Shown here: positions 41,477 to 57,005 of the stretch, piece by piece
Position numbering within the stretch: position 1 is the first letter of the stretch
How the letters are laid out: each line of letters opens with the position of its first letter
Origin: Candidatus Collierbacteria bacterium GW2011_GWB2_45_17
GTDB taxonomy: Bacteria; Patescibacteriota; Microgenomatia; UBA1400; MFAQ01
Assembly (NCBI GenBank): GCA_001001485.1
Contig: LCKO01000001.1
Coordinates: 9,381 to 73,380 of the forward strand
DNA length: 64,000 nucleotides
Direction of reading: 5' to 3'
Made by a program: the position numbers and the translations under genes
Notes under the pieces: model-generated
What the model was told of the DNA's origin: nothing
The model's database searches: none
What the model saw: only the letters and a program-made list of their open reading frames with translations

Positions 41477-41482
41477 AGCTCT

Positions 41483-41923: not shown

Positions 41924-41925
41924 TC

Positions 41926-42579
41926 ATGGGAAAAAAAGTTAACCCAATCGCTTTTAGAACCGGCTACATCTTTCCCACCAAGTCGATCTGGTTTGCCAAT
42001 TTTAGAAACTACGCCAAGTATGTTTTGGAAGACAACAAGATCAGACGCTTTTTGGAAGCCAAGTTAAAGCTCGCCGGTATCACCAGTATCGAGATCAAAC
42101 GCTCGATCAATTCGGTTGATATTTTTATGAACGTTTCCCGCCCCGGCGTCGTTATTGGTCGTGGCGGTTCTTCTCTGGAAATTCTCAAAAAAGACATCGA
42201 AAAGCTCCTTAAAATTAATCCCAAGGCCAAAAACGCCGTCAAGATTAATCTTCACCCCCTAGAGATTAAAAATCCCGACATGAACTCAGCCATCATTGCC
42301 GATCGTCTAGCCAACCAATTGGAACACCGTTATCCTTTCCGTCGTGCCGCCAACCAAGCCATCGAAAAGGTTATGGCTTCCGGAGCCAAAGGTGTCAAAC
42401 TCGTTTTTGCCGGTCGTATCGATGGCGCCGAAATTGCCCGTGTCGAAAAGTTCAAACAAGGTCGAATTCCTACTCAAACCTTACGTGCCAACATTGATTA
42501 CATAGAGAAAAAAGCTCTTACCCGTTCCGGGTATGTTGGCATCAAAGTTTGGATTTATTCAGGCGACATCATCAGCTAA
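41926..42579 (+). CDS. rpsC: 30S ribosomal protein S3
   Basis: S3 signature. Confidence 0.9.
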   Translation: MGKKVNPIAFRTGYIFPTKSIWFANFRNYAKYVLEDNKIRRFLEAKLKLAGITSIEIKRSINSVDIFMNVSRPGVVIGRGGSSLEILKKDIEKLLKINPKAKNAVKINLHPLEIKNPDMNSAIIADRLANQLEHRYPFRRAANQAIEKVMASGAKGVKLVFAGRIDGAEIARVEKFKQGRIPTQTLRANIDYIEKKALTRSGYVGIKVWIYSGDIIS

Positions 42580-42615
42580 GTCCTATCAACCAACAACTAA
42601 TAACAAAGAACTAAC

Positions 42616-43029
42616 ATGTTACAACCAGGGAGACGCAAATATCGAAAAGAGTTTAGAGGTAGTATGGGAGGCGTTGCCACTCGTACCCATGAACTCTCTT
42701 ACGGAGACTTCGGGATCAAAGCCTTAGAATGTGGTTGGCTATCGGCCAACGAAATTGAATCTGCTCGCCGCACCATCACTCACCACACTAAACGGGTCGG
42801 TAAATTTTTCCTTCGTGTTTTTCCTCACAAACCTATCGGTCACAAGACTCCTGGTGCTCGTATGGGTTCCGGCAAGTCGGATGTGTCAGGCTACGTTGCC
42901 GTCGTCAAGCCCGGGCAGATACTGATGGAGCTTTCCGGAGTAACCAGAGAAATTGCCACCGAAGCCATCCGTCTCGCCGGCCACAAACTCTCCGTTAAAA
43001 CCAAATTAATTGAAAAAGAAAATGCCTAA
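42616..43029 (+). CDS. rplP: 50S ribosomal protein L16
   Basis: L16 signature. Confidence 0.9.
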   Translation: MLQPGRRKYRKEFRGSMGGVATRTHELSYGDFGIKALECGWLSANEIESARRTITHHTKRVGKFFLRVFPHKPIGHKTPGARMGSGKSDVSGYVAVVKPGQILMELSGVTREIATEAIRLAGHKLSVKTKLIEKENA

Positions 43030-43201
43030 AACAAAGACCGTTACCTCCACCACGACCCTTGAAGAGCTCAAAATTAAGTTAGCGAGCATCAAGCTTAATA
43101 TCCGTGCCGGTATCGAAAAAAATACCAACGCTCACAAGAAGACCAAAGTCCAAATTGCTCAGCTCTTGACTAAGAACAATCAACCAATAACTAATAACTA
43201 A
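43010..43201 (+). CDS. rpmC: 50S ribosomal protein L29; its C-terminal NQPITNN is encoded by an AACTAA-type tract
   Basis: L29 signature. Confidence 0.8.
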   Translation: MKKKMPKTKTVTSTTTLEELKIKLASIKLNIRAGIEKNTNAHKKTKVQIAQLLTKNNQPITNN

Positions 43202-43202
43202 A

Positions 43203-43430
43203 ATGAAACACCTACTCGGCACTGTTAAAAGCGACAAAAATATTAAAACCGCCATCGTTGATGTCGTCAGATTCAAAGTTCACCCCAAATACCTGAAACG
43301 TATCAAGGTCAATAAGTCTTACGCTGTCCAAAACGACCTCGGCGCCAAAGTCGGGAATCGTGTCCGTCTCGAAGAAACTCGTCCCATTAGTAAAACCAAA
43401 CGTTGGAAAATCTCTAAAATTATAAAATAA
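43203..43430 (+). CDS. rpsQ: 30S ribosomal protein S17
   Basis: S17 signature. Confidence 0.9.
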
Positions 43431-43431
43431 T

Positions 43432-43806
43432 ATGATTCAACTAAGATCCGTCCTTAACATTGCCGACAACTCCGGAGCCAAACAGATCAAGGTCATTTTG
43501 GTTCATGGAGGCTCTCACCGTCGCTTCGGTCGCATTGGTGACGTGGTTACCGCCGCTGTCGAAGGTGCCTCTGCCGATGGCACAGTCAAAGACAAGCAGG
43601 TGGTCAAAGCCGTGCTCGTCCGCACTCGCAAGGAAACCCGCCGGCCGGACGGTACCTACGTTCGCTTTGACGACAACGCCGCTGTTATTATTGACTCAAT
43701 TGCGAGTAAGCTCCCTTTGGGAACTCGTATCTTTGGCCCCATCGCCCGTGAGGTAAAAGATGCCGGTTTCTCCAAGATTGCCTCACTCGCCCCCGAAGTC
43801 GTCTAA
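43432..43806 (+). CDS. rplN: 50S ribosomal protein L14
   Basis: L14 signature. Confidence 0.9.
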
Positions 43807-43811
43807 CAATC

Positions 43812-43849
43812 GTCATTGCGAGTCTCGTATTCGAGCCGAAGCAATCCAG
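43812..43849. repeat. Hairpin repeat GTCATTGCGAGTCTCGTATTCGAGCCGAAGCAATCCAG between rplN and rplX
   Basis: Same family as the 16813 and 46920 elements. Confidence 0.6.
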
Positions 43850-43871
43850 AAAAAATAAAACTATAAAACAT

Positions 43872-44195
43872 ATGTTCAAATTCAAAATCAACGATACTGT
43901 TCAGATCACCGCCGGCAAAGACAAGGGGCGCAGTGGTAAAGTCCTAAAAGTCCTGCCAGTCGACCAAAAAGTCTTGGTGGAGGGGATTAATCTTTACAAA
44001 AAACACATCAAGCCCAAAGGTAACGAAGCCGGTACCATCCTGACACTTCCTCGTGCTCTATCCACTGCTTCCGTTGCTCTCATCTGCCCGAGCTGTGGCA
44101 AGCCCACCAGGGTCGGCTTTGATGCCTCCCAAACCCCCAAAGTCAGAATTTGTCACAAGTGTCGTCAGATAATTACCAGTGAAATCAAAAAATGA
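43872..44195 (+). CDS. rplX: 50S ribosomal protein L24 with a C-terminal C4 zinc-ribbon extension
   Basis: KOW domain, then CPSCGKPT...CHKCRQ. Confidence 0.85.
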   Translation: MFKFKINDTVQITAGKDKGRSGKVLKVLPVDQKVLVEGINLYKKHIKPKGNEAGTILTLPRALSTASVALICPSCGKPTRVGFDASQTPKVRICHKCRQIITSEIKK

Positions 44196-44740
44196 TTCAA
44201 AATTTAAAAGAAAAATATTTAAAAGAAATTCGTCCGGTCCTCCAAAAAGAGTTGGGTCTTTCCTCTGTTGAGGCCGTTCCCAAGATCACCAAGATCACGG
44301 TCAACACCAGCTCCAAGGACTTCAAAACCGACAAAGACTTGCTGGCCAAAACCAAGGACTGGATGAGCAAGATCACCGGCCAAGCTCCATTGGAGACCAA
44401 GTCGAGATCCAGTATCGCCGCCTTCAATTTGCGCGAAGGTGAGGTAGTTGGTTTAAAAACTACACTTCGAGGCACCAGAATGTATGACTTCCTGGAAAAG
44501 CTCATCTCCATCGTTCTCCCGCGTCTAAAAGATTTTCAAGGTATCTCCACTAAAGCCTTCGACAACAAAGGCAACTACACCATTGGTTTTCCCGAACAAA
44601 TAGTGTTTCCCGAGGTCGAATATGATAAAATCGGGAGGATTCAAGGGCTAGAAGTGACCGTCTCCACCAGTGCGAAAGACTCCAAAACCTCTTTGATGTT
44701 CTTAAGAGTCTTAGGCATGCCTTTTACCAAGGAGTCATAA
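44192..44740 (+). CDS. rplE: 50S ribosomal protein L5
   Basis: L5 signature. Confidence 0.9.
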
Positions 44741-44750
44741 AATATTTAAG

Positions 44751-44936
44751 ATGGCTAAAAAAAGCAAAATTGCTAAAACACTTAAACTTGCCGGTCACAG
44801 CACCCGTGATCACCGTCGTTGCCAGCTCTGCGGCCGACCTCGTGGTGTCATCCGTATCTTCGGTCTTTGCCGTCTCTGCTTCAGAGAAATGGCTCACCGA
44901 GGAGAGTTACCCGGTGTTTTCAAAATGTCAAAATAA
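44751..44936 (+). CDS. rpsN: 30S ribosomal protein S14, zinc-binding type Z
   Basis: 61 aa; CQLCGRP...CRLCFRE. Confidence 0.9.
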
Positions 44937-44937
44937 T

Positions 44938-45327
44938 ATGGATACTACCGCCGACTTTTTAACTATCATCCGCAATGGCTACCTCGCCAAAAAAGACACA
45001 GTGGTTGTCGAATTTTCCAAAGCCAGAGAGGAACTCACTAAGATTCTTAAGACAGAGGCTTTTATCGTCGATTACTCAGTCGAAAAAGCTAAACCCGTTA
45101 ACAAACTCATCATTAATCTTCGTTATTTCGACAAGGGCCTGCCTGCCGTTACCGGTATCAAGAAAATCACCAAACCTAGTGTCCGAATTTACTCTGGGTA
45201 CAATCAAATTCCACGAACTCTCTCCGGCGCCGGCACTACCATTCTGACTACCTCGGCTGGTTATATGACCGGCAAGACCGCTCGTGAAAAACATCTTGGC
45301 GGCGAAGTTATTTGTCAAATTTGGTAA
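44938..45327 (+). CDS. rpsH: 30S ribosomal protein S8
   Basis: S8 signature; start at MDTTADFLTIIRNG (the ORF-track ORF 44770-45327 has an over-extended 5' end). Confidence 0.85.
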   Translation: MDTTADFLTIIRNGYLAKKDTVVVEFSKAREELTKILKTEAFIVDYSVEKAKPVNKLIINLRYFDKGLPAVTGIKKITKPSVRIYSGYNQIPRTLSGAGTTILTTSAGYMTGKTAREKHLGGEVICQIW

Positions 45328-45330
45328 CAA

Positions 45331-45399
45331 ATACCAACTAAACTAACCATTAACCAATAACTAATAACCATTAACCAATAACTAAGCACTAATAACTAA
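45331..45399. repeat. AACTAA-rich low-complexity tract with two direct repeats of ACCATTAACCAATAACTAA
   Basis: Similar AACTAA(T/G)AAC tracts at 42581-42615, 43180-43202, 56971-57005 and 59385-59426. Confidence 0.45.
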
Positions 45400-45400
45400 C

Positions 45401-45952
45401 ATGAGCCGCATTGGACGAAAACCACTATATCTTCCCGAAACTGTCAAGCTTGAAACTTACGAGACCTCGTTGAAGTTCACCGGCCCGAAGGGTACTCTGG
45501 AATCAGTCGTTCCTAAAGGTATCAAGGTCGAAATCAAAGGTAGTGTTATAAACTTTACTAGAGACAACAACATACCGGCCACCCGTGCCCTACACGGCCT
45601 AGCTCGCCGATTAGCCCAGAACTGCGTTACTGGCGTCACCGACGGTTTTTCAAAAGACCTTCTGTTGGTCGGAACCGGTTATCGTGTTTCTCCTCACGCC
45701 GAAGGTCTTTCCTTCTCGGTCGGTTACTCTCATCCGGTTATTTTCAAAAAGGTTGAAGGTGTTACCATTACCACCGAAGGTCAAGATAAAATCAAGGTTA
45801 CCGGCATCGACAAACAACTGGTTGGCCAAGTCGCCGCCAATATCCGCGAGATTAGAAAACCCGAGCCTTACAAAGGCAAGGGGATTCGCTATGTCGACGA
45901 AGTCATCCTCAAGAAGCAAGGTAAAACAGCTACCAAAACCGCCGCCGTTTAA
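45401..45952 (+). CDS. rplF: 50S ribosomal protein L6
   Basis: L6 signature. Confidence 0.9.
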   Translation: MSRIGRKPLYLPETVKLETYETSLKFTGPKGTLESVVPKGIKVEIKGSVINFTRDNNIPATRALHGLARRLAQNCVTGVTDGFSKDLLLVGTGYRVSPHAEGLSFSVGYSHPVIFKKVEGVTITTEGQDKIKVTGIDKQLVGQVAANIREIRKPEPYKGKGIRYVDEVILKKQGKTATKTAAV

Positions 45953-45960
45953 AACCAAAA

Positions 45961-46332
45961 ATGAAAAAGCTAAACGATAAACAATCCAGAGCCGGCCGCA
46001 TCCGATCCAAATTGCTCGCCCGCACCACTCGTCCTCGTCTGACGGTCAGTCGTAGCAATCAAAATATTTTTGCCCAAATTATCGATCAAACCGGTAAGGT
46101 TCTGGCTGCCTTTGGTTCAGCGTCATTGCGAGGAGGTCGCCTCAGACGACCGACGAAGCAATCTATAAAAATGACCAAAACGGAAATGGCTACCGAAGTT
46201 GGTAAGAAACTTGGCGAAATAGCCAAAAACAAAAAAATTTCCACTGTCGTTTTTGATCGTGGTTCTTACCGTTTTCATGGCCGTGTCAAAACCCTCGCCG
46301 AAGCCGTCCGCGCCACCGGCATCAAATTCTAA
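45961..46332 (+). CDS. rplR: 50S ribosomal protein L18 carrying an in-frame hairpin-repeat insertion
   Basis: L18 core; the inserted segment SLRGGRLRRPTKQS is encoded by GTCATTGCGAGGAGGTCGCCTCAGACGACCGACGAAGCAATC. Confidence 0.85.
   Translation: MKKLNDKQSRAGRIRSKLLARTTRPRLTVSRSNQNIFAQIIDQTGKVLAAFGSASLRGGRLRRPTKQSIKMTKTEMATEVGKKLGEIAKNKKISTVVFDRGSYRFHGRVKTLAEAVRATGIKF
46122..46163. repeat. Hairpin repeat (GTCATTGCGAG...GAAGCAATC family) inside the rplR coding sequence, in frame
   Basis: Sequence identity to the intergenic copies. Confidence 0.6.
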
Positions 46333-46333
46333 C

Positions 46334-46368
46334 GTCATTCCGACCGAAGCGGAGGAATCTCACTCCAC
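46334..46368. repeat. Hairpin repeat GTCATTCCGACCGAAGCGGAGGAATCTCACTCCAC
   Basis: Same family as the 20253, 41852 and 46988 copies. Confidence 0.6.
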
Positions 46369-46396
46369 TAAATAAACAAATATAAAATAAAACAAA

Positions 46397-46915
46397 ATGG
46401 CCTACACAGGAAATACAAACAACAGCAATCGAGGCGGCGGTCGTCCGGCTCCAGAAGGCTTCGAACAAGTCCTTCAGATCCGTCGCGTCAGCAAGAAGAC
46501 TCAGGGTGGTACCAATGTCTCCTTCTCTGCGTTAGTGGTGACCGGGGACAAAAAAGGTAAAGTTGGTCTAGGTTTAGCCAAGGCTCCCAACGTCGCTGAT
46601 GCTATCAAAAAAGCCATTCGTCTCAGTAACCGAGACTTGGTTCAAGTTCCCCTGGTCGATGGTACTATCCCCTACGAAACCAACTCCAAGTACGGCGCCG
46701 CCAAAGTTCTTTTCCGCCCGGCTCCCAAGGGTACCGGTCTTATCGCCGGTTCATCCGTCCGCGCCGTGGTTGAAGCCGCCGGTATTACCGACATCGTTTG
46801 CAAGGTTTTGGGTACCAACAACAAGACCAGCAACGCCAGGGCTACTTTCAAAGCTCTCAAACAGATCGAAACTCTAGGTAAAAAATACCAATTGCTCAAA
46901 GCCCTGAGGGCGTAG
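46397..46915 (+). CDS. rpsE: 30S ribosomal protein S5
   Basis: S5 signature. Confidence 0.9.
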   Translation: MAYTGNTNNSNRGGGRPAPEGFEQVLQIRRVSKKTQGGTNVSFSALVVTGDKKGKVGLGLAKAPNVADAIKKAIRLSNRDLVQVPLVDGTIPYETNSKYGAAKVLFRPAPKGTGLIAGSSVRAVVEAAGITDIVCKVLGTNNKTSNARATFKALKQIETLGKKYQLLKALRA

Positions 46916-46919
46916 CCCC

Positions 46920-47022
46920 GTCATTGCGAGTTTCGGTACTCCGAACCGTGGCAATCCAGAACAATAAATATAATATACAAATTAATTGTCATCCCGAGCG
47001 AAGTCGAGGGATCTCACTCCAC
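46920..47022. repeat. Two hairpin repeats (GTCATTGCGAGTTTCGGTACTCCGAACCGTGGCAATCCAG and GTCATCCCGAGCGAAGTCGAGGGATCTCACTCCAC) occupying the position where rpmD (L30) would normally lie
   Basis: No L30-like ORF lies between rpsE and rplO. Confidence 0.6.
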
Positions 47023-47030
47023 AAAACAAT

Positions 47031-47483
47031 ATGAAAATGCTTTTATCCAATCTTCCCAAAATAATCGAAACTCCCAAAAAGCGCCTTGGACGAGGCTTTG
47101 GCTCTGGTGTCGGCGGTCACACCGTCGGACGTGGTCAAAAAGGTCAAAAAACCCGCGGTATTATCCCTCTTTGGTTTGAGGGCGGTCAGCTTCCCTTGGT
47201 CCGCCGGACTCCTTTCATCAAGGGTAAGCACCGTTTCCAGGTTATCAAGCCTCAGCCTATCACCGTCAACTTCGATCGCCTCGACAAGTTTGCCGAAAAC
47301 TCGGTCGTAGACGCCCTTTTCCTTGCCACTGCCCTCAAGGTGAGCGAGAAAGAAGCCAAGCGCGGCTTCAAGATTATCGCTACCGGTAAGCTCACCAAAC
47401 CCTTCCAAATCGCCGTCCCGGCCTCCGCGGGGGCCATCAAGGCTATTGAGAAGGCCGGCGGCAAGTTCCTCGCCTCCAAATAG
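47031..47483 (+). CDS. rplO: 50S ribosomal protein L15
   Basis: L15 signature; start at MKMLLSNL (the ORF-track 5' extension translates the repeat). Confidence 0.85.
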   Translation: MKMLLSNLPKIIETPKKRLGRGFGSGVGGHTVGRGQKGQKTRGIIPLWFEGGQLPLVRRTPFIKGKHRFQVIKPQPITVNFDRLDKFAENSVVDALFLATALKVSEKEAKRGFKIIATGKLTKPFQIAVPASAGAIKAIEKAGGKFLASK

Positions 47484-47566
47484 CGTCACCCCACTCTTGA
47501 CTTTAGACCTATAATTTGATATAGTTTCAGTATAGGTTCACACTAAAACTAACGTTGGAGGTAAAG

Positions 47567-47905
47567 ATGTACACTGTTGATGATTTTGCAAAGGATATGC
47601 ATGCGGATGTATGGGCGATTCGAGGCAGGCTCTTGGAAATAACTTCAAAATGTCTCCAATGGGGTGAATTAAGCGTCAAACACTTAAAGCTTAAGGATGC
47701 CAAAGTAGTTGGGAACGTGCTCTTTCTTCGCTTTGTTGCTAGCAACGATTATTTGGCGATTGATCCAGTTGAGAAAAGAATCTACCAGGCCAATTACGAT
47801 CTCAAGGAAGTTCCTGGAAAGCACGAGATAGATCTATCTATCATCAATAATATTTCCAAAGAGCTTAAAACTCGGTATTCAAAGGCTAGCCCTGTCAGCT
47901 TTTAA
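47567..47905 (+). CDS. Hypothetical protein A of the rplO|secY island (SD GGAGG)
   Basis: 113 aa from the Met at 47567 (the ORF-track ORF starts at 47555); SD then ATG; followed by a strong terminator. Confidence 0.45.
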   Translation: MYTVDDFAKDMHADVWAIRGRLLEITSKCLQWGELSVKHLKLKDAKVVGNVLFLRFVASNDYLAIDPVEKRIYQANYDLKEVPGKHEIDLSIINNISKELKTRYSKASPVSF

Positions 47906-47916
47906 ATATATGCAGA

Positions 47917-47946
47917 CAAAACCATTCCCCCCGGGAGTGGTTTTTT
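47917..47946 (+). terminator. Intrinsic terminator AAAACCATTCCCCCCGGGAGTGGTTTTTTG followed by a -10-like CTATAAT
   Basis: Long GC stem plus T-tract. Confidence 0.6.
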
Positions 47947-47988
47947 GCTATAATATCCCAGAACATTAAAATTCCAGGAGGTATACCC

Positions 47989-48417
47989 GTGTTTAACATT
48001 CGTTTTCAGAATCTACCCAAGCTTGTCTTTAACCCGCGCCTTTTCGCTTTTGAACCTGCCCATGTGGACACGCTCCGCCAAGTTATCGGCACACTCTTAA
48101 GATGCCCGCCGGAACTACCCCAACTCTTAATTGAAAGATCGGAGTGCTTTATTTTGGAAGACAAAAGCCTCGTAGCGGCCCCCGTACGGATTATCGTCGA
48201 GTGGTACTCTGAACGCCCTAGTTCCGACACTATTTTTGGCCTGGCTCTGGCCTTTTACAACTTTCTAAAAGCTTATGGCTTTGAAGCAGGTCTGACAGTC
48301 ATCTTTTCCGGTATTTCCGAAGGTGACGCCTTCATTGAGAAAGATGGTCGTTTGATTTCCGCTCCCCGTCTCCCCACTCCACATTTTAACTATCGTGGCT
48401 TTCAAGGCAAACGCTAA
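47989..48417 (+). CDS. Hypothetical protein B (GTG start, SD GGAGG)
   Basis: 142 aa ORF, no recognizable family. Confidence 0.45.
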   Translation: MFNIRFQNLPKLVFNPRLFAFEPAHVDTLRQVIGTLLRCPPELPQLLIERSECFILEDKSLVAAPVRIIVEWYSERPSSDTIFGLALAFYNFLKAYGFEAGLTVIFSGISEGDAFIEKDGRLISAPRLPTPHFNYRGFQGKR

Positions 48418-48426
48418 AGGAGATTT

Positions 48427-48801
48427 ATGAAATCTTTGCTCACCTTAAACAATCTCGGCTACGCCAGAGACGTTTCCGGGGGACCAGAATGTAATTGCGA
48501 CCTCGGGGTATTCATTTTCGCCTCCGAACAAAGCCTCAAAATACGCACCTATTTCTATCTGAAGAATCAGTCGGAAAAACAATTGGTCATCGGTAAGTTG
48601 GTGGATGGTGTCAATGATAGTGCGGATCTAGACCATGGCAAGCTAACCTTCAGGTTCGAAAGTAACGGACACGTTGAACTCTCCTGGGAAAACCAAGAAG
48701 GCCATCAAACTGCCACCTTCAATGAAATTGCTTTGGTCCAGCTTATGGAAGTCGAATGGGTCCGAACCCTCGTCAAAAACCGCACCGCCAGCTATCTCTA
48801 A
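48427..48801 (+). CDS. Hypothetical protein C (SD AGGAG)
   Basis: 124 aa ORF, no recognizable family. Confidence 0.45.
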   Translation: MKSLLTLNNLGYARDVSGGPECNCDLGVFIFASEQSLKIRTYFYLKNQSEKQLVIGKLVDGVNDSADLDHGKLTFRFESNGHVELSWENQEGHQTATFNEIALVQLMEVEWVRTLVKNRTASYL

Positions 48802-48807
48802 TCTTTA

Positions 48808-48833
48808 CGCCACCCTTCACTGGGTGGTTTTTG
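48808..48833 (+). terminator. Intrinsic terminator GCCACCCTTCACTGGGTGGTTTTTG followed by a -10-like TTACAAT
   Basis: GC stem plus T-tract. Confidence 0.55.
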
Positions 48834-48872
48834 TTACAATACTCGGGAACATTCAAATTTCAAGGAGGTCAA

Positions 48873-49469
48873 GTGGATAAAAATTCAATCCTTCATCAGA
48901 TCAACATCGATTTTTTTATACTTTCAGCCACTGTCGTTCAAGATCTCAAAATGATCGCTCTTTGCCGATCCCCTTACTACAAGCACCCTATTGGTTGTCC
49001 AAACTGGGATCACAAAGACGGTTGTCCGCCCCATACCAAACGTTTTTTATCAGTCTATGAGCCGACAGTTTACATCGCCATTGCTCGCTTGGATTTTGGT
49101 AAGTATCTGAAACTTAAAGAAAAAATTCATCCGGGGTGGACAGAGAAAGCTTTAAAAAACCCTCGTCACTGGCAAGGTCACCTAAGAGCCGCTCTCAGAA
49201 ATTTTCTAACTCCGGACAAAATCCACACCGGCTTCGAAATAGTTAAAAATGCGGAAGCCATGGGCATCAATTTGTTCGAAACCTGTGCCAATGCCGGCTT
49301 CGTTCTCGAAAGAGATCCGAAAAATTATGTTTGCCACCTTAATCTCTTGGCTAAACCCACCACCCCTCACCGGGTGGTTTTTTGTTTCGTGGCACCGTGT
49401 CACAGTGTTACCGTGCCACACACCTTATCATTCTCGACCGACTATAATTTAACAAATGGATCTTATTAG
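48873..49469 (+). CDS. Hypothetical Cys-rich protein D (GTG start after AGGAGG); its 3' end reads through a terminator hairpin
   Basis: CRSPYYKHPIGCPNWDHKDGCPP Cys/Pro motif. The upstream part of the ORF-track ORF 48756-49469 was rejected because it spans the preceding terminator and promoter. Confidence 0.4.
   Translation: MDKNSILHQINIDFFILSATVVQDLKMIALCRSPYYKHPIGCPNWDHKDGCPPHTKRFLSVYEPTVYIAIARLDFGKYLKLKEKIHPGWTEKALKNPRHWQGHLRAALRNFLTPDKIHTGFEIVKNAEAMGINLFETCANAGFVLERDPKNYVCHLNLLAKPTTPHRVVFCFVAPCHSVTVPHTLSFSTDYNLTNGSY
49353..49384 (+). terminator. Intrinsic terminator AAACCCACCACCCCTCACCGGGTGGTTTTTTG; followed by a second hairpin GTGGCACCG...CGTGCCAC and a -10-like TATAAT about 9 nt before the ATG at 49456
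   Basis: GC stem plus T-tract. Confidence 0.55.
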
Positions 49470-50343
49470 AAAAATTATTATGGATCTCTGCAAATTCTCT
49501 CCTCGTCAAGGAGAGAACGAGGTCAGAACTGCCCAGTATTTGGAGAACTTTTTGACTCAGAGAAAAATCAACTTCACTTCTCAGTATTTCAAAACCGAAA
49601 TCCCCAATGTTATTCACGCGGAACTCTATCTAGATGGCCAAAGGATACCATGTCTCGGAAAATCATTCGTCGGTGGCATGATTACTTCCAAGGATCAAAT
49701 CGATTTTAGTCCGTATTCAGACTATATCGAAACTATCACTTTTCGGCCCATTCCCACAGTTGCCATTTCCAGGACAAACGCTAAATTCCTAGAGAAAGCC
49801 AACCACGTCCGCGGGGAAGTTGTAGTTGAGAAATATTTATTCCAATCAAGAAACATATTAGTTGGCGATACCATTAATCCCAAAAAAATTATTTTTGCTC
49901 ACTACGATGGTCTTGGTGGGGGAGCAGTGGACAACGCTGGCAGTGTCGCCATTTGTCTCGAACTCTTAATTGAAAACCCTGAACTGTTATCCGAGAACTT
50001 ATTTGTTTTTGCTGGCAACGAAGAACTCAGTTACGACTCTGGAGACTACTGGGGCAAGGGCTACCGTGAATTTGAAAATGAATATCTCACCCTACTAAAA
50101 TCCGCTCTGGAGATTGTGGTTGTCGATGGCGTCGGGGTCAGCCCTCCTGTTATTGTTTCCGAAGACCGAGAAGATGTCTTTCCAATCAATCATTTCGACG
50201 AGTTCTCATCAAAAATTACCTGGCTTTCCAGCATCCAATCAGAAGTCCTCAAATGCTATCACTGTTTGGAAGATACACTTGACAAGTTAAATTTCGGCCA
50301 TTTCGAAGAAACCAGAAAAATGTTAGAAAAGATGTTAGGATAA
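49456..50343 (+). CDS. M28-family zinc peptidase-like protein
   Basis: IIFAHYDGLGGGAVDNAGSVAICLELL resembles the M28/M20 metal-binding segment; N-terminal region SPRQGENEVRTAQYLENFL as in aminopeptidases. Confidence 0.5.
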   Translation: MDLIRKIIMDLCKFSPRQGENEVRTAQYLENFLTQRKINFTSQYFKTEIPNVIHAELYLDGQRIPCLGKSFVGGMITSKDQIDFSPYSDYIETITFRPIPTVAISRTNAKFLEKANHVRGEVVVEKYLFQSRNILVGDTINPKKIIFAHYDGLGGGAVDNAGSVAICLELLIENPELLSENLFVFAGNEELSYDSGDYWGKGYREFENEYLTLLKSALEIVVVDGVGVSPPVIVSEDREDVFPINHFDEFSSKITWLSSIQSEVLKCYHCLEDTLDKLNFGHFEETRKMLEKMLG

Positions 50344-50346
50344 ATT

Positions 50347-50544
50347 ATGACCAATAAATTTAAAAACCTGAAGCCGTATATAGTCAGGACATCAGAAAAT
50401 AATGCATATACTATCCCGAAACTGGTAAGGGGGGAAAAACGCGATAAAATGATTTCCGAAATGGTTGAACTAATCAAAGAAAATAAGAAAATTATTGACG
50501 ATCTCAAATCATCCTCGAAACCAGATGGGTATCTTTTTGGATGA
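50347..50544 (+). CDS. AbrB/MazE-type (swapped-hairpin) antitoxin-like protein
   Basis: 65 aa; IVRTSENNAYTIPKLVRGE resembles SpoVT/AbrB DNA-binding antitoxins; immediately precedes and overlaps a PIN gene. Confidence 0.45.
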   Translation: MTNKFKNLKPYIVRTSENNAYTIPKLVRGEKRDKMISEMVELIKENKKIIDDLKSSSKPDGYLFG

Positions 50545-51094
50545 AAATTTCAAAGAATCAGTAAGAGGTAAATATTGCCTGTTGGATAATGATTTTCTTG
50601 GTGCCTTATTCAATGACAATTCTCTATTCCTTGCGATGAAGGACCTTTTAAATGACTATCCCTTTGTATACGATAATCTGACAAGTTTTGAATTCTTAAG
50701 AGATATCTATGTTCCTAGTCAGATAGTACTCAGGGAAAAATTTTTATCGAAGGATTTATTGTTTCCTCTCTCTGATCATCAAGAAATATATACAAAGACT
50801 CAAACCAATGCTCTCATCCTTTCCAAGATTTATGCCCAAAATAATTCAAAGTTAAATCAGAAGGGTTCAGCAAGTTTTACCGATATTTTTTTAGCTTCTA
50901 GATTAATGTCTTTGGGGAGTAAATACTTACTTATTACCGGAAATAAAAAAGACTTTCCCAATTATATCTTTGATACAAAAGGCATCATTACAAACGAGGA
51001 GGCAAGCGGAGCTCTAAGAAGCTACTCACTTCTATCATTTGATCCGGATAAATTTGATAAGTGTTTCAAGGAATTAGGCGGGGTGGGCAATTAA
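50525..51094 (+). CDS. PIN-domain nuclease-like toxin (VapC-like)
   Basis: CLLDNDFLGALFND near the N-terminus and LLITGNKKDF near the C-terminus fit the PIN acidic motifs. The ORF-track ORF starts at 50495; Met at 50525 chosen. Confidence 0.45.
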   Translation: MGIFLDENFKESVRGKYCLLDNDFLGALFNDNSLFLAMKDLLNDYPFVYDNLTSFEFLRDIYVPSQIVLREKFLSKDLLFPLSDHQEIYTKTQTNALILSKIYAQNNSKLNQKGSASFTDIFLASRLMSLGSKYLLITGNKKDFPNYIFDTKGIITNEEASGALRSYSLLSFDPDKFDKCFKELGGVGN

Positions 51095-51124
51095 ACCTAG
51101 AGCTGGTAGAATAAGAATCACGAC

Positions 51125-52405
51125 ATGAATACTTTATTAGCCCCCTTGCGCGCCTTATTCAAGATTAAAGATCTCAGGAATCGCCTTATTTTTACCGCGA
51201 TTATTATTGCTATTTTTCGTTTAGTGGCTCACATTCCGGCTCCCGGAATCAATTTAGCCGCTCTGAAACAGCTTTTTGATGGTTCTGCCTTCCTCTCCCT
51301 TCTTGATATTTTTTCTGGCGGTACGCTGACTAATTTTTCCGTCATGGCTCTTGGTCTTAATCCCTACATCAACGCCTCTATCATTATGCAGATGATGGGT
51401 ATGGTCGTTCCCAAGTTGGAAGAGCTGCAAAAAGAAGGGGACTATGGTCGCCAGAAAATTAATCAATACACTCGCCTTTTAACTATCCCTCTTTGTTTCT
51501 TTCAAGGGATCGCTTTAATATTTCTTCTTCGGGGTCAAGGACTTACCACCACCACCGATCCTCTAAAACTCGCCGCCATTGTCTTTACCCTCGCCGCCGG
51601 CACTTCATTTCTCATCTGGCTCGGTGAACAGCTCAACGACTATGGTGTGGGCAACGGTATTAGTTTGATTATCTTTGTCGGTATCGTTACCCGTTTGCCG
51701 GTCGCCGCCGCTCAAATGTTAGCCACTATTGACCCCACCAAAATATTTACTTACTTAATTTTTGCTTTTTTTGCTATCGCCTCGGTCTATGCCATTGTCC
51801 GCGTCGGCGAAGCCGTTCGCGAAGTTCCCATCCAATCGGCGAGACGCGGCGCCTCTTTTACCTCGACATTGGGCAATCACCTGCCTCTCCGTCTAAATCA
51901 AGCCGGCGTGATCCCGATTATCTTCGCTGTTTCTTTTATGTTGATTCCGAATCTTCTTGGTCGGGTCTTCGCCGGTTCTGGTCAAGCCTGGTTAGCCGGA
52001 GTCTCCCGAAACATTACTCTCTATTTGGCGCCGGAATCCATTCTTTATAATGCCCTCTACTTTGGTTTAGTAGTTGCCTTTTGTTATTTCTATACTGCCG
52101 TGGTTTTTAATCCCGAAAAAATCGCCAAGGATCTTCGTCAGTCCGGCTCTTTTATTCCCGGTATCCGTCCCGGTCCCAACACGGTTGATTACCTAAATTT
52201 TGTTCTAAATAGAATTACTTTGGTAGGAGCCTCATTTTTGGGTCTGGTGGCCGTCTTTCCCTCCATTATTTCCGGGATGACCGGCATTACCGGGTTGGCC
52301 ATCGGCGGCACCGGTATCTTAATCGTCGTCTCCGTCGTTCTGGAAATTCTTAAATCCATCAACTCTCAGCTCTACATGTACAGTTACGATAAATTTCTCG
52401 ACTAA
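51125..52405 (+). CDS. secY: Preprotein translocase SecY
   Basis: 10 TM helices, SecY signature. Confidence 0.9.
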
Positions 52406-52460
52406 AATGAAAATAATTTCAGCAAGACTAGTCTCTGGCTAGCAAGTGACAAATCAATAA

Positions 52461-53294
52461 ATGGTCAAGAAAAGATACAATCTCAAAGTTAAAGGCCTTG
52501 AAATAAGTATTTTTCAAATAGACAACTCTGATTACGTTTCCCTTACCGATATGGCCAAGTACAAAGATATTTTTAGAAGCGATTATATTTTGCAAAATTG
52601 GATTAGAGGCAAGCATGTCATAGAGTTTCTCGGACTATGGGAAAAACTTTACAACAAAAACTTTAAACCCATCGAATTCGATGGGTTTATGTCAGAGTCA
52701 GGGTCAAACAGTTTTGTCCTGACACCAAAAAAGTGGATCGAGAAAACAAATGCCATCGGTATTATTTCCAGAGTTGGTCGGGGGGGAGGAACCTATGCCC
52801 ACAAAGATATTGCCTTTGAGTTTGCTTCATGGATAAGTGTTGAATTTAAACTATATCTTATTAAAGAATTTCAAAGACTCAAAGAAGAAGAGGGTCTTCG
52901 GTTAGAACAAGGTTGGGATACCAAGCGCACTCTTGCCAAAATAAATTACAAAATTCACACCGATTCTATCAAAGAACATATCATTCCCACAGTTATACCA
53001 AAAACCAAGTCGAGTACAATTTACGCCAACGAAGCAGACGTATTAAACGTAGCTTTATTTGGTCAAACAGCCAAAGATTGGCGAGTAAAAAATCCAAACA
53101 AAGATGGCAATATTCGAGACTACGCTAATGTAATGCAACTAATCATCTTGGTCAATCTGGAAAGTTTTAATGCTGAACTAATTAGGCGAGGTATTTCACA
53201 ATCTGTAAGGTTAGTTGAATTAAACAAAGTTGCAATCTTTCAAGCAAGATCGTTAATAGGTAACAGCCAAATTAATAAAATAGGTAAAATATAA
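52461..53294 (+). CDS. KilA-N domain protein
   Basis: GGTYAHKDIAFEFASWISVEFKLYLIKEF is the conserved KilA-N core. Confidence 0.6.
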   Translation: MVKKRYNLKVKGLEISIFQIDNSDYVSLTDMAKYKDIFRSDYILQNWIRGKHVIEFLGLWEKLYNKNFKPIEFDGFMSESGSNSFVLTPKKWIEKTNAIGIISRVGRGGGTYAHKDIAFEFASWISVEFKLYLIKEFQRLKEEEGLRLEQGWDTKRTLAKINYKIHTDSIKEHIIPTVIPKTKSSTIYANEADVLNVALFGQTAKDWRVKNPNKDGNIRDYANVMQLIILVNLESFNAELIRRGISQSVRLVELNKVAIFQARSLIGNSQINKIGKI

Positions 53295-53296
53295 AT

Positions 53297-53857
53297 ATGA
53301 ACATCATTATTCTCGGTCCACAAGGATCCGGCAAGGGCACTCAAGCCCAGTTACTGGCCGAAAAATTTGGTTTAACCAATATTTCTTCCGGAAAACTTCT
53401 TCGTGAGGAAGCCAAAAATGATACCGAAAAAGGCAGATTGGTTGCCGACCTTCTCACTACCGGCGCTCTTCTTCCCTTCGACACCGTCCTTGAAGTCACC
53501 GAGCCAGTACTACTTCAGGCAAAATCCGGATTTATTATCGATGGCACCCCGCGAGACTTAATGCAAGCTGAGTATCTTGATTGGTATCTATTAGAGCGTC
53601 AGATAAATATCGACAAGGTGATCCTTCTGAACATTCCTAGAGAAGTTAGTCTGGATAGACTGTCCAAAAGAGCCAAAATTGAAAACCGCTCCGATGATAC
53701 TCCGGAAGCCATTCACGAAAGACTGGATATTTACGAGAGAGAAACCCTTCCCGTTGTCGAGTATTATCGAAAACAAGGAAAACTTATCGAAATCGATGGT
53801 ACCCCCGATATTCAAAGTATCTTCCTAGACATTGTCACCAAACTATCCACCAAATGA
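53297..53857 (+). CDS. adk: Adenylate kinase
   Basis: GPQGSGKGTQ P-loop; 186 aa. Confidence 0.9.
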   Translation: MNIIILGPQGSGKGTQAQLLAEKFGLTNISSGKLLREEAKNDTEKGRLVADLLTTGALLPFDTVLEVTEPVLLQAKSGFIIDGTPRDLMQAEYLDWYLLERQINIDKVILLNIPREVSLDRLSKRAKIENRSDDTPEAIHERLDIYERETLPVVEYYRKQGKLIEIDGTPDIQSIFLDIVTKLSTK

Positions 53858-54588
53858 CCAAACTTCAAGTTATGACCGAAGGCGGCAAGCGTCTGGGTCG
53901 GATCAAAAGTCAGTTGGCTGATATGGTCAAAGAAGGTGTTACTCCTCTGGAAATTGATAATTTTGCCGAGAAACTCATTAGTGAAGGAGGAGATAAACCT
54001 TCATTCAAGATGGTTCAGGGCTACAAGTACTCTACCTGTATCAATATCAACGCCGGCATGGTTCATGGAATCCCCGGGAAAACCCCTTTTAGACCAGGTG
54101 ATGTAGTCAAAGTAGATATGGGACTTTTTCATGAAGGTTATCATCTTGATACCTCCACCACCATTCAAATTCCTCCTTATACCCCTGAAGTCAGCAAATT
54201 CCTTAAGGTCAGCCAAGAGTCTCTCAAAGCCGCTATCTTTGCCGCCACTCCCGGTAACACTGTTTACGACCTTGGAGTGGCCATGCAGACCGTGGCGGAA
54301 AGCGCGGGCTACAACGTCATTCGTGACCTCACCGGCCATGGGATCGGCCGTCAGCTTCACATGGAGCCTTTTATTCCTTGCTTCGCCGACAAGAGAAACA
54401 AGAAGTTTGTTCTGGCCGTAGACCAGACCGTGGCTATCGAGGCTATGGTAACTATGGGGGACTGGCATCTGGTCGAAGATCCGGACGGCTGGACTCTGTC
54501 TACCCAAGACGGCTCTCTCACGGCCATGTTCGAAGAAACCGTCTACCTCACCCCCAACGGTCCCCTCATCCTCACCGCCGTGTGTTAA
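53854..54588 (+). CDS. map: Methionine aminopeptidase type I
   Basis: Pita-bread fold motifs. Confidence 0.85.
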   Translation: MTKLQVMTEGGKRLGRIKSQLADMVKEGVTPLEIDNFAEKLISEGGDKPSFKMVQGYKYSTCININAGMVHGIPGKTPFRPGDVVKVDMGLFHEGYHLDTSTTIQIPPYTPEVSKFLKVSQESLKAAIFAATPGNTVYDLGVAMQTVAESAGYNVIRDLTGHGIGRQLHMEPFIPCFADKRNKKFVLAVDQTVAIEAMVTMGDWHLVEDPDGWTLSTQDGSLTAMFEETVYLTPNGPLILTAVC

Positions 54589-54630
54589 AATACCCATCTT
54601 CTCGCAACTTAAAATTATAGGAGGCTTCCC

Positions 54631-55008
54631 GTGTCCAAAAACAAAGTTCTTGTCCTTCATTCCGCAGACAGTTCTGCTCGAGCCGAAACTTTCAAAAAAT
54701 GGCTGGAAAACCTGGATTTTAGTGTTTCAACCATGAACGACTTAAACAAATCAGAATCCGAGTCCGCCTACCGTCTTTTACAAAAAGCGATCGAAGGAAA
54801 CGATCGTGTTGTTATCTTGGTTTCCACCGGGATTTTTAACAGTTGTGTTCTGAGGTTTGGTATAGGCTACGCCCTCGGTGCCGGCAAGAAGATAGTCTCA
54901 GTCGTCAAGGACACCGATAGGGTTATTATGCCCTCTTGGTACGCCAATCTATTTGTACCGTTAAATAGCTACGACGAGGGCGAAATCTGGTCCAAACTGA
55001 AAAAATAA
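54631..55008 (+). CDS. Small TIR-like / SLOG (nucleoside 2-deoxyribosyltransferase-like) fold protein
   Basis: KVLVLHSADSS (TIR beta-A-like), then DRVVILVSTGIFNSCVLRFGIGYALGAGKKIV; SD AGGAGG with GTG start; own terminator. Confidence 0.4.
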   Translation: MSKNKVLVLHSADSSARAETFKKWLENLDFSVSTMNDLNKSESESAYRLLQKAIEGNDRVVILVSTGIFNSCVLRFGIGYALGAGKKIVSVVKDTDRVIMPSWYANLFVPLNSYDEGEIWSKLKK

Positions 55009-55012
55009 CTTC

Positions 55013-55037
55013 CCAGCCCCCGAAAGGGGGCTTTTTC
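55013..55037 (+). terminator. Intrinsic terminator AGCCCCCGAAAGGGGGCTTTTT
   Basis: 7-bp GC stem, GAAA loop, T-tract. Confidence 0.65.
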
Positions 55038-55105
55038 TAGCCAAGATTAGCCACTAGCCTAAGCAATATTTGACATTCCGTACACATCGTCATAATATAT
55101 AAGTA

Positions 55106-55402
55106 GTGAAATTTGACTGGAATCCAGACAAAAACAAGCTTTTAAAATTAACCAGAGGGATTGATTTTCAATCAATTGTGCGGGCCATAAAGAAAAAGAA
55201 GGTCTTGTTAGATACGCCACACTTTGATCAAATCAGGTATCCAAAACAAAGAATATTAATTATTTCTATCAAAAGTTACGCCTATATTGTCCCATATGTT
55301 CAAAATGGACCAACACGATTTTTAAAAACTATTTATCCAAGTCGCCGATATTATAAAAAATATTTAAAAAATGCCCAAAAAGCCAAAATTCGATCCCTTT
55401 AA
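55106..55402 (+). CDS. BrnT toxin (DUF497), second copy
   Basis: MKFDWNPDKNKLLKLTRGIDFQSIV...RILIISIKSYAY...FLKTIYPSRRYYKKY. Confidence 0.65.
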   Translation: MKFDWNPDKNKLLKLTRGIDFQSIVRAIKKKKVLLDTPHFDQIRYPKQRILIISIKSYAYIVPYVQNGPTRFLKTIYPSRRYYKKYLKNAQKAKIRSL

Positions 55403-55673
55403 AAACCTAGTTCTGGACGAGTACGAACAAGAATTGGAAGATAGTATCCCAGACGACATTGTATTAACTCCACCCTCACCAGCTAGGCTTGCTATACTCA
55501 AGAAAGCCGCCGAAAATACTCTCAGAGACTTAGAACTTCAAAAAAAGAGCAAAAACATCAATTTGAGAGTCACCGAGGCCACCTTTCGCAACCTAAAATC
55601 AAAGGCCACCAGGCTCGGTTTGCCATATCAAACTCTAGCCTCTAGTATTCTTCACCAATACTCCAGTAAATAG
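55371..55673 (+). CDS. BrnA antitoxin, second copy
   Basis: INLRVTEATFRNLKSKATRLGLPYQTLASSILHQY. Confidence 0.65.
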   Translation: MPKKPKFDPFKNLVLDEYEQELEDSIPDDIVLTPPSPARLAILKKAAENTLRDLELQKKSKNINLRVTEATFRNLKSKATRLGLPYQTLASSILHQYSSK

Positions 55674-55738
55674 TACCCAAATTAGCCACTAGTCAAATGT
55701 GGCTAACTTTGGTACAATACCGTTTGCACAACTAAAAT

Positions 55739-55957
55739 ATGGCTAAAAACCAGATGACTGAGGTAAACGGAGTCGTCTCCGAGTCGCTACCCAATATGCA
55801 GTTTCGGGTAACTCTCGAAGATGGCAGAGAAATCTTGGCTCATCTTGCTGGCAGAATGCGGCTTCATCGCATTCGCGTCATGCCCGGGGACAAAGTAAAG
55901 CTCGAAATGAGCGAATACGACCTGGACAAAGGCAGGATAGTTTACAGATCAAGCTAG
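55739..55957 (+). CDS. infA: Translation initiation factor IF-1
   Basis: S1-like OB fold; 72 aa. Confidence 0.9.
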
Positions 55958-56003
55958 ATTCCGTTTCACTCACCAATAATTATTTAAATAAACTAAAACG
56001 CGC

Positions 56004-56117
56004 ATGCGGGTTCAATCGTCCGTCAGACCTCGTTGCAAGAATTGCAAAATTATTAAACGCCATGGTAAGGTGTTGGTCATTTGTACCAATCCCCGCCATA
56101 AACAACGCCAAGGATAA
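56004..56117 (+). CDS. rpmJ: 50S ribosomal protein L36 (not in the ORF track; found by manual translation)
   Basis: ATGCGGGTTCAATCG... translates to [37 protein letters not shown]. Confidence 0.8.
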
Positions 56118-56120
56118 CCC

Positions 56121-56546
56121 ATGCCCAGACTTTCCGGTATCGATATTCCCAACGAAAAAAGAATTGATATCTCTCTAACCTATATCTATGGTGTCGGTGA
56201 TATGGTCGCCAAAGATATCCTCAAAAAATCCAAGGTGGCTCCTCATATTCGTACCAAAGATCTCTCCGGAGAAGAGTTAAAAAGTATTCAAACTGTCTTA
56301 GACACTCTCCCCACCGAAGGAGAACTTCGTAAAATGGTGCGCGATAATATCGAAACTCTCAAAAGAATTCAAGCCTACCGAGGGACAAGACACTCTATGG
56401 GTCTTCCGGTTAGAGGCCAACGGACCAAAACCAACGCCCGTACCAGAAAAGGCAAGCGAAAGACCATTGGTGCTATCTCCAAAGAAGCCTCTACCGCTAT
56501 CTCCCCCGCTCCGGCCGCCAAGGCTCCTGTAGCCAAAAAGAAATAA
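56121..56546 (+). CDS. rpsM: 30S ribosomal protein S13
   Basis: S13 signature. Confidence 0.9.
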   Translation: MPRLSGIDIPNEKRIDISLTYIYGVGDMVAKDILKKSKVAPHIRTKDLSGEELKSIQTVLDTLPTEGELRKMVRDNIETLKRIQAYRGTRHSMGLPVRGQRTKTNARTRKGKRKTIGAISKEASTAISPAPAAKAPVAKKK

Positions 56547-56556
56547 CTAAAACCAC

Positions 56557-56970
56557 ATGCCAGAAGAAAAACCCATCATCAAACCGGTCTTAAAAAACAA
56601 AAAAGCCTCCGCCATTCATTTTAAAAGCGGTCAGGGTAAAATGTATGTCAAGTCTACCTTCAATACAACCTATGTTACTTTTACCGACACCACGGGCAAC
56701 ACTGTTTGTTGGAGTAGCGCCGGCACTTGTGGTTTCAAAGGGGCCAAGAGATCCACTCCGTTTGCGGCTACCACCATTATTGAAGAAGGTCTTCGAAAAG
56801 CCAAAACTCTAGGCCTAACTAACATCGATGTCTATCTCAAAGGCCCCGGACCAGGGAAAGACGCCGCTCTTCGTGTTCTAAAGACCTCCGGTGCCGAAAT
56901 CAATATGCTGGCCGACACCACTCCCATTCCCCACAACGGCTGTCGCCCCAGAAAACATCGCCGAGTCTAA
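56557..56970 (+). CDS. rpsK: 30S ribosomal protein S11
   Basis: S11 signature. Confidence 0.9.
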   Translation: MPEEKPIIKPVLKNKKASAIHFKSGQGKMYVKSTFNTTYVTFTDTTGNTVCWSSAGTCGFKGAKRSTPFAATTIIEEGLRKAKTLGLTNIDVYLKGPGPGKDAALRVLKTSGAEINMLADTTPIPHNGCRPRKHRRV

Positions 56971-57005
56971 ACCAAGAACTAATAACCAATAACTAAAAAT
57001 AAAAC

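Follow-up and report, generated by a model that had tools for sequence, protein, structure and literature searches.

Seven genes between rplO and secY in a Collierbacteria genome: probable occupants of a lineage-specific hypervariable array of small transcription units

Few gene adjacencies in bacteria are as stable as rplO-secY, which routinely serves as part of phylogenetic marker blocks. In Candidatus Collierbacteria bacterium GW2011_GWB2_45_17 (assembly GCA_001001485.1), it is interrupted. The window analysed here, a stretch of 64,000 nucleotides of contig LCKO01000001.1 (positions 9,381 to 73,380), contains a 3.64-kb gap between the two genes in which seven open reading frames (ORFs), designated A to G, are found, all oriented as their flanking genes on the + strand (Table 1). 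An earlier reading of the sequence, hereafter the original prediction, had reported this seven-gene interruption, and the coordinates together with the TIGR01071 and TIGR00967 anchors confirm it. The same neighbourhood is present on 12 independent contigs encoding an identical protein B, among them contig DPQI01000022.1 of GCA_003539025.1. As these contigs, which originate from several groundwater metagenomes, agree, the arrangement is not an assembly artefact. As developed below, comparison with relatives indicates that the seven genes probably belong to a hypervariable array and do not form one system.

Table 1. Features of the rplO-secY interval (positions of the window; SD, Shine-Dalgarno site; R1, score with covariance model R1)
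Feature	Coordinates	Strand	Remarks
rplO (L15), upstream anchor	46986..47483	+	TIGR01071, 1.5e-26; gene callers put the start at 47031
P_A, promoter-like site	47497..47525	+	TTGACT-17-TATAGT with TG; diverged copy of the second array promoter module (CCTATAT..GTATAAT)
Gene A, 112-aa orphan protein, family F2	47567..47905	+	GGAGG SD 5 nt upstream
T1, weak terminator hairpin, diverged relative of the array hairpin	47917..47949	+	R1 13.3 bits, E-value 0.21
P_B, predicted promoter and leader	47946..47988	+	extended -10 (TGCTATAAT), conserved leader (ATCCCAGAACATTAAAATT), AGGAGG
Gene B, 142-aa orphan protein, family F6	47989..48417	+	AGGAGG upstream
Gene C, 124-aa orphan protein, family F5	48427..48801	+	9 nt after B; AGGAG SD
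T2, array hairpin	48805..48836	+	GCCACCCTTCACTGGGTGGT then T-run; R1 36.7 bits
P_D, predicted promoter and leader	48832..48872	+	extended -10 (TGTTACAAT), leader (GAACATTCAAATTTCA), AGGAGG
Gene D, DUF2284 metal-binding protein, 198 aa	48873..49469	+	GTG start; AGGAGG upstream
T3, array hairpin	49355..49386	+	ACCACCCCTCACCGGGTGGT then T-run; R1 43.7 bits
TATAAT box	49443..49448	+	7 nt before the ATG of E; no SD
Gene E, short M28-family metallo-aminopeptidase, 295 aa	49456..50343	+
Gene F, 65-aa putative antitoxin, new family	50347..50544	+
Gene G, 189-aa PIN-fold (VapC-like) putative toxin	50525..51094	+	overlaps F by 20 nt
secY promoter-like site	51084..51112	+	TGGGCA-17-TAGAAT with TG; motif GAGCTGGTAGAATA conserved in relatives
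secY, downstream anchor	51125..52405	+	TIGR00967, 3.6e-115

The junction was compared across 80 SecY-anchored loci, which were searched by tblastn with the window proteins before the ORFs of their gaps were clustered. A SecY scan of genome contigs identified other Candidatus Collierbacteria, of the Microgenomates group, as the closest relatives, with SecY identities of 88-92%. The gap is occupied in all 32 Collierbacteria loci (0.56-6.3 kb). In every Collierbacteria locus holding both anchors (25 of 25), rplO and secY are separated by 556-6340 bp with 1-9 ORFs that lie almost exclusively on the + strand; in other members of the Candidate Phyla Radiation (CPR), the gap is limited to 0-283 bp in 47 of 48 loci. 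The exception, L062, comes from a distant member of Patescibacteria whose SecY is 47% identical. Its 6.1-kb insert (1900-8000) holds six co-oriented ORFs between rplO and secY, mostly orphans along with one M23 peptidase, and tblastn detected in it no relative of the proteins of the window island. Nothing relevant to an rplO-secY hotspot in CPR was found in the literature.

Clustering of the array ORFs gave 15 small families and many singletons, the most recurrent families being those of D (F1, 12 loci), A (F2, 8), E (F3, 8), F4 (6), C (F5, 4) and B (F6, 4). The seven-gene block itself occurs in none of the relatives. Genes D and E share an array in only two of 33 loci, namely the window and a short metagenome contig (L108), and the remaining 11 D-carrying and 7 E-carrying loci hold just one of the two. 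Co-occurrence of A-D with M28 peptidase and PIN genes is not observed, and the parts of the block recur in many other combinations. Gene content varies over short evolutionary distances, since arrays differ despite 96% identical SecY proteins (e.g., L016/L014/L018/L011 and L019/L020).

The 104 array proteins of the relatives were also compared with domain collections. Pfam assigned eight of them to DUF2284 and seven to M28, together with single cases of an IS200 transposase, a Rieske protein, a cupredoxin, a glyoxalase, an Rnf/NQR protein, a methyltransferase and a zinc-ribbon protein. The IS200-like Y1 transposase lies inside the L029 array (6602-7249), between two hairpins (phmmer with IS200 TnpA, 6e-16; Pfam Y1_Tnp, 6.5e-26). 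A single protein, matching mad2, was retrieved by PADLOC. There is no co-variation with defence genes. About nine in ten of these proteins lack hydrophobic segments. The possibility that all cassettes are diverged paralogues is not supported, as profile-profile comparison of the 15 families recovered only the F9-F15 pair (81% probability) and faint hints among F2, F8 and F9.

The families do not share one history. Pairwise identity follows that of SecY closely for E (rho 0.92) and less so for D (0.59) and F4 (0.52), and is unrelated to it for the A family (0.05); judged from these values, D and E appear to be inherited mostly vertically. The order of families is roughly colinear between loci (A .. 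B C .. D or E .. F4 .. secY). It also shows inversions, A-F11 in L018 facing F11-A in L041 and D being first in L022, and tandem paralogues occur in families F2, F5, F7, F8 and F9.

The junctions between cassettes are themselves repeated. A recurrent module precedes unrelated cassettes in many genomes and consists of a hairpin (consensus ACCACCCCTCACCGGGTGGT), a T-run, an extended -10 box (TGnTAtAAT), a leader (consensus A(T/C)CCCAGAACATTCAAATT), GGAGG and the start codon. In the window, T2 (48809-48828) and T3 (49359-49378) are 91% identical over 23 nt, and identity between the promoter/leader stretches at 47942-47976 and at 48828-48862 is 77% over 35 nt. The claim of three near-identical units is therefore borne out for the T2 and T3 hairpins and for the P_B and P_D leaders, but T1 is only a weak relative and the third unit has no SD. 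A second promoter module (CCTATAT..GTATAAT) was found 11 times in gaps and twice in flanks, and modules related to P_A precede unrelated genes in L012, L013, L014, L016, L018 and L022.

The hairpin pattern, searched as a regular expression, occurs 30 times in gaps and never in 377 kb of flanks. Similarly, covariance model R1 matched strongly at just two places of the 64-kb window, T2 and T3, and gave, in 1.16 Mb of loci, 35 matches, all in Collierbacteria, all on the + strand and 34 of them inside gaps, with none in the 48 other CPR loci. The promoter-leader part counts 17 copies in 67 kb of arrays versus 2 in 377 kb. Blocks of homology between arrays begin at hairpins or promoters: the block shared with L010 starts at 47943, unit A (47484-47942) being entirely absent from that locus, and the block shared with L015 starts exactly at T2. 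Hairpins at non-orthologous junctions are 92-100% identical, whereas the adjacent genes are 68-79% identical; for T3, identity to the hairpins of such junctions in L010, L012 and L015 is 92-97%. An Rfam scan of the island returned no match.

The promoter-leader part is also found outside the arrays. In the window (31758-33796, + strand), a module made of TATAAT, 8 nt, TACATTTCCAA and GGAGG precedes two genes (31758 and 32291), which code for a 143-aa orphan ORF and for an MttB-family methyltransferase (PF06253, 5e-85), a family unexpected in a CPR genome. An exact copy lies before an 84-aa membrane ORF beside pilB/pilC-like genes on metagenome contig L107 (1105-1437, - strand). Its candidacy as a cassette-specific site was dropped because it precedes these three genes. 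In a scan of viral contigs, the promoter-leader module gave 11 matches devoid of hairpin or SD context, which is about the chance level by rough estimate.

Translation signals set A-D apart from the host genes, as had been pointed out in the original prediction. While A-D are preceded by GGAGG or AGGAG, secY, adk and map have no SD and show A-rich leaders, and the ribosomal protein genes from S10 to L15 also lack an SD, the single exception being an AGGAG upstream of S14. SD-less, A-rich leaders extend over S10-L15 (S14 excepted), secY, adk, map, infA and rpoA (38645-47031 and 51125-57655). Two styles of translation initiation thus seem to coexist in one genome, SD-less for ribosomal protein genes and GGAGG-led for stand-alone accessory genes. 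Base composition, in contrast, distinguishes only part of the island, since F and G have a GC content of 0.34 versus about 0.46 for their neighbours, and the other genes are not clearly outside the host range of 0.45-0.55.

Proteins A, B and C could not be assigned to any family in Pfam, NCBIfam, PHROG or PADLOC, in line with their initial description as proteins without a recognizable family. Among 1.84 billion representative proteins, they gather 2, 5 and 5 clusters, respectively, and F gathers 4; all four are tiny lineage-restricted families. A, B and C are nevertheless not spurious ORFs. Comparison of homologue pairs of A-E shows much lower conservation at the third codon position than at the first two, which marks A-E as real coding genes under purifying selection. 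For B and its L010 copy, which share 54% identity, conservation is 0.38 at position 3 and 0.69/0.71 at positions 1/2. The B-C adjacency is retained in L010.

Gene D differs from A-C in belonging to DUF2284 (PF10050), a family widespread in CPR, so that the refuting outcome named in the original prediction, A-D resolving into ordinary CPR families, is reached in part, for D. D itself reaches 20 bits with the Pfam model, below the cut-off of 25, but its family profile collects 203 homologues across Patescibacteria, most with a precomputed PF10050 assignment, and eight array copies match PF10050. D homologues occupy other genomic sites in WWE3 and other CPR. The first 26 residues from the GTG start at 48873 are conserved in relatives. 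The Cys-rich character noticed at the outset is well founded, with C31, C42, C51 and C138 invariant in the Collierbacteria copies (alignment A3), and C31, C42, C51, Y35 and H38 invariant in the wider family (alignment A4, 40 sequences). The invariant Cys/His motif of DUF2284, C-x3-Y-x2-H-x2-GCPNW-x5-GCPP, is consistent with D being probably a metal or Fe-S protein. Its structural model is confident, with only weak likeness to solved structures of nitroreductase/MMACHC-like fold, and a PDB sequence-profile search of D returned nothing useful. The literature likewise gave nothing relevant on the function of DUF2284, which is mentioned there as uncharacterised.

The conserved part of D covers residues 1-162 (to 49358), with a predicted local distance difference test (pLDDT) score of about 95, and is followed by a 36-aa tail with a pLDDT of about 55. 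This tail (49359-49469) crosses T3 into the start of E, and relatives stop 2-8 codons after the conserved LLAKP; having lost its own stop codon, D thus reads through terminator T3.

Gene E is by its sequence a true M28-type peptidase, as had been proposed. It matches PF04389 (Peptidase_M28) with 22.4 bits against a gathering score of 21.3, all seven of its relatives match the same family (best 2.8e-9), and a PDB profile search aligned it with aminopeptidase 2ek8 (1.8e-4) over three colinear segments. Residues H149, D151, D159, E189, E190, D224 and H269 are invariant in eight sequences, and the metal ligands (H149, D159, E190, D224, H269) and the catalytic Glu (E189) are all kept. As in the M28 aminopeptidases of Aneurinibacillus (2ek8) and B. 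subtilis (YwaD), the H-x-D, D-N-A-G, N-E-E, D and Y-H-x-x-E-D-T motifs are present; unlike them, E has only 295 aa, lacks a PA domain and a signal peptide, and shows very weak similarity outside the motifs. Its mRNA is probably leaderless, as originally suggested, except that the TATAAT box stands 7 nt and not about 9 nt before the start codon. The same 7-nt spacing follows TATACT in L011, L013, L014 and L016.

E, F and G follow one another directly, and no terminator separates them. Upstream, the F-G pair begins at a conserved junction after E, the point at which family F4 begins in L016 and L023; downstream, it extends to the conserved secY promoter. It occurs in no other rplO-secY array and is found elsewhere in CPR as a stand-alone pair. 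These features, with the low GC content, suggest that F-G is the most recent addition to the array in this genome and was newly acquired.

The assignment of G as a PIN-domain protein is supported by fold and by sequence. The AlphaFold2 model has a pLDDT of 92.7, and VapC/PIN chains represent 12 of the first 13 Foldseek matches in the PDB (probability 1.00, template-modelling score normalised to the target 0.65-0.70, E-value about 3e-3). All 37 homologues of a diverse set retain D21, D23, E56, D120, N140 and D143; the correspondence of D21/E56/D120/D143 with VapC D7/E42/D98/E119 was made by position and motif, not by residue-level superposition. Curated PIN/VapC models do not recover G, which has no Pfam match at E-value <= 1, an E-value of 0.099 with the best NCBIfam VapC model and nothing in a PDB sequence-profile search. 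Its homologues, of 180-210 aa, form at least 141 clusters at 90% identity across Patescibacteria; all are unannotated and none has a Pfam domain. No match to G was found in phage or plasmid collections.

The small protein F had been predicted to be an antitoxin of AbrB/MazE type. This assignment is not supported, as no AbrB, MazE, ribbon-helix-helix (RHH), helix-turn-helix or Phd signature was found (no Pfam match better than E-value 0.03, no PDB relative), and PHROG gave only weak matches to families without assigned function (E-value 0.016). The prediction of a toxin-antitoxin-like pair stands, on the 20-nt overlap and on a conserved pairing: a 53-62 aa gene homologous to F lies directly upstream of a G homologue in L118, L119 and L122, that is, in three unrelated contexts in other CPR. 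As in VapBC, a small upstream gene overlaps a gene for a PIN-fold protein, G has four acidic positions (D21, E56, D120, D143) and a C-terminal T-x-N-x-x-D-F motif, and the pair is scattered through unrelated genomic contexts. In contrast to classical VapC, G is about 50 aa longer, with an additional C-terminal beta-hairpin and helix, and escapes the Pfam and NCBIfam PIN models, while F has neither an AbrB, RHH, MazE or Phd signature nor a solved relative. F-G would therefore represent a VapBC-like toxin-antitoxin module, with G as putative toxin, from a family not covered by Pfam, NCBIfam or PADLOC. G may be a VapC-like PIN RNase that depends on Mg2+ and is neutralised by F, and the pair may be a mobile type-II-like module which recently entered the slot upstream of secY that F4 holds in relatives.

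Other junctions of the same ribosomal protein cluster are also occupied. The secY-adk junction, normally tight as well, holds in the window a gene for a 277-aa KilA-N protein (52461-53294, + strand, GC 0.35) which matches the PADLOC candidate defence model PDC-S22 (2.8e-125) and phrog_2657; the secY-adk gap is likewise occupied in L011, L021, L022, L025 and L031. Three additional genes lie between map and infA (54631-55673, + strand). The first encodes a 125-aa TIR-like protein, just under the cut-off for both TIR_2 (24 bits) and ThsB_TIR (20.3 bits), and has a GGAGG leader style. The next two are a 98-aa ORF (GC 0.31) and an overlapping CopG-type antitoxin gene (PF12441, 30.3 versus 28 bits), and from their sequences they look like another toxin-antitoxin pair within the cluster. 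Elsewhere, the window ORFs include two Gp49 (HigB-like toxin), two HTH_3 and two Bro-N domain proteins, and overlapping pairs of small ORFs at 5484-6067 and 16957-17537 (+ strand) are likely HigBA-type modules, these coordinates being deduced from size and adjacency.

Collectively, these data support, with a probability which we put at roughly two in three, that the rplO-secY interval is a Collierbacteria-specific hypervariable array of separate small transcription units, established in a permissive break of the ribosomal protein cluster, and not one system. The units would be P_A-A-T1, P_B-B-C-T2, P_D-D-(T3) and a leaderless P_E-E followed by F-G, with secY transcribed from its own conserved promoter. 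Whole units would be gained, lost and duplicated at the hairpin/promoter junctions, most likely by homologous recombination, for which both the repeated junction modules and the conserved flanks on the rplO and secY sides would supply matching sequence. D and E would then be accessory genes of the lineage and A, B and C fast-evolving orphans. With regard to mobile elements, the island has no integrase or phage match.

Several observations weigh against this interpretation. Given the partial colinearity of the families, the pattern could largely result from differential loss of an old, larger cluster and not from cassette gain, and the conserved B-C adjacency indicates that some genes may work together. 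Since the promoter-leader module is also present at 31758, at 32291 and in L107, it is a style of the lineage for stand-alone SD-led genes. The figures for the array specificity of the hairpin hold only against the control flanks, which are tightly packed ribosomal protein genes with few terminators; one R1 match (L038:15820) lies outside a gap, and the hairpin sequence serves as a plain terminator in three unrelated viral contigs (3 matches). Finally, the promoters and terminators are predictions from consensus sequences, from which we infer their activity.

A more far-reaching version would be an integrase-less cassette array, kept within the best-conserved bacterial gene cluster, whose self-contained units change places, duplicate and pass from cell to cell at the hairpin/promoter junctions. 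Natural transformation and recombination could mediate this exchange, or else a trans-acting enzyme that recognises the hairpin. We regard this version as tentative and rather unlikely. The array is reminiscent of the minimal mobile elements of Neisseria, in which transformation and homologous recombination exchange gene cassettes at a site framed by two conserved genes: in both cases, whole-gene units differ at a site bounded by core genes and no dedicated recombinase is present, but here the site holds multi-gene arrays with internal repeated junction modules, within a ribosomal protein cluster. Chromosomal integrons, such as the Vibrio superintegron, rely on an IntI integrase, an attI site, attC sites with R''/L''-L'/R' boxes and promoterless cassettes expressed from Pc. 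Integron-like cassettes lacking a nearby integrase, whose hairpin and promoter modules would be recombination sites for a trans-acting recombinase or a Y1 (IS200/RAYT-type) transposase, are an unlikely explanation. As in integron arrays, the cassettes are small, co-oriented and mostly orphan, turn over rapidly between close relatives, include a toxin-antitoxin cassette and carry a hairpin-forming repeat at their 3' ends, in one orientation and enriched in arrays. Synteny breaks at these hairpins, which are better conserved than the neighbouring genes, and in L029 they adjoin the Y1 transposase. However, the array is fixed between two essential genes and its cassettes have their own predicted extended -10 boxes and SD sites. 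No integrase was found among the 104 array proteins or among the top Pfam families assigned to the remaining ORFs of the window, and 32 arrays with their 8-kb flanks contain no integrase or recombinase apart from the single IS200. The hairpin is an ordinary intrinsic terminator with a 7-bp GC stem and a T-run, shared with unrelated viral contigs; no attC-like R/L boxes were seen at the hairpins, to which no attC model was applied. Slow gain and loss would fit the partial colinearity as well as the vertical signal of D and E.

Part of the same evidence would suit the decay, by differential loss, of a long ancestral operon fixed between rplO and secY, in which case the similarity of junctions would be plain orthology. 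The roughly conserved relative order of families, the correlation of D, E and F4 identities with that of SecY and the conservation of the secY promoter and of the E/F4 junction agree with such a history. It is nonetheless improbable, as 15 families and many singletons require an ancestor far larger than any present array, and as order inversions, tandem paralogues, the absence of correlation for the A family, near-identical hairpins at non-orthologous junctions and the foreign composition of F-G are not expected from loss. The original prediction was of an undescribed defence or addiction system; in such a system, the PIN nuclease would be the effector, with sensing or regulation left to the small proteins and the peptidase. 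This prediction is largely refuted by the comparative data and retains very little probability. Its appeal lay in the co-oriented, tightly packed genes, in the uninterrupted E-F-G segment and in the defence-like genes at neighbouring junctions (the KilA-N protein matching PDC-S22 and the TIR-like protein). Yet the block is found in no other genome, its parts occurring in other combinations; F-G never accompanies A-E elsewhere and stands alone in other CPR, D and E rarely share an array, predicted terminators and promoters divide the block, and PADLOC found nothing significant among A-G (its strongest result, a weak match between A and a CARF model, has an E-value of 0.025). A prophage remnant, a moron insertion or an assembly chimera is scarcely credible. 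The units do resemble phage morons, autonomous promoter-SD-ORF-terminator packages between genes of a larger cluster, and F-G is low in GC, but the array resides on a bacterial chromosome, A-G have no significant PHROG match (only the weak one of F), viral-contig scans for the module and the hairpin gave only chance-like matches, G is absent from the phage and plasmid collections searched, no flanking direct repeats occur and the 12 concordant contigs contradict a chimera.

A hypervariable array at this site reveals a place where very small genomes gather new genes; if the integrase-less version proves true, it would serve a reduced genome as a nursery of new genes and a place to exchange them. 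It also serves as a warning that ribosomal protein scaffolds are not always colinear in metagenome-assembled genomes of CPR. For organisms not amenable to cultivation, the array offers a compact natural set of promoters, leaders and terminators. It further supplies two unannotated families: a putative PIN toxin, spread across CPR in at least 141 clusters, and the small protein paired with it. Finally, the recurrence of DUF2284 proteins and of a minimal M28 peptidase as occupants of the site provides a lead to their role.

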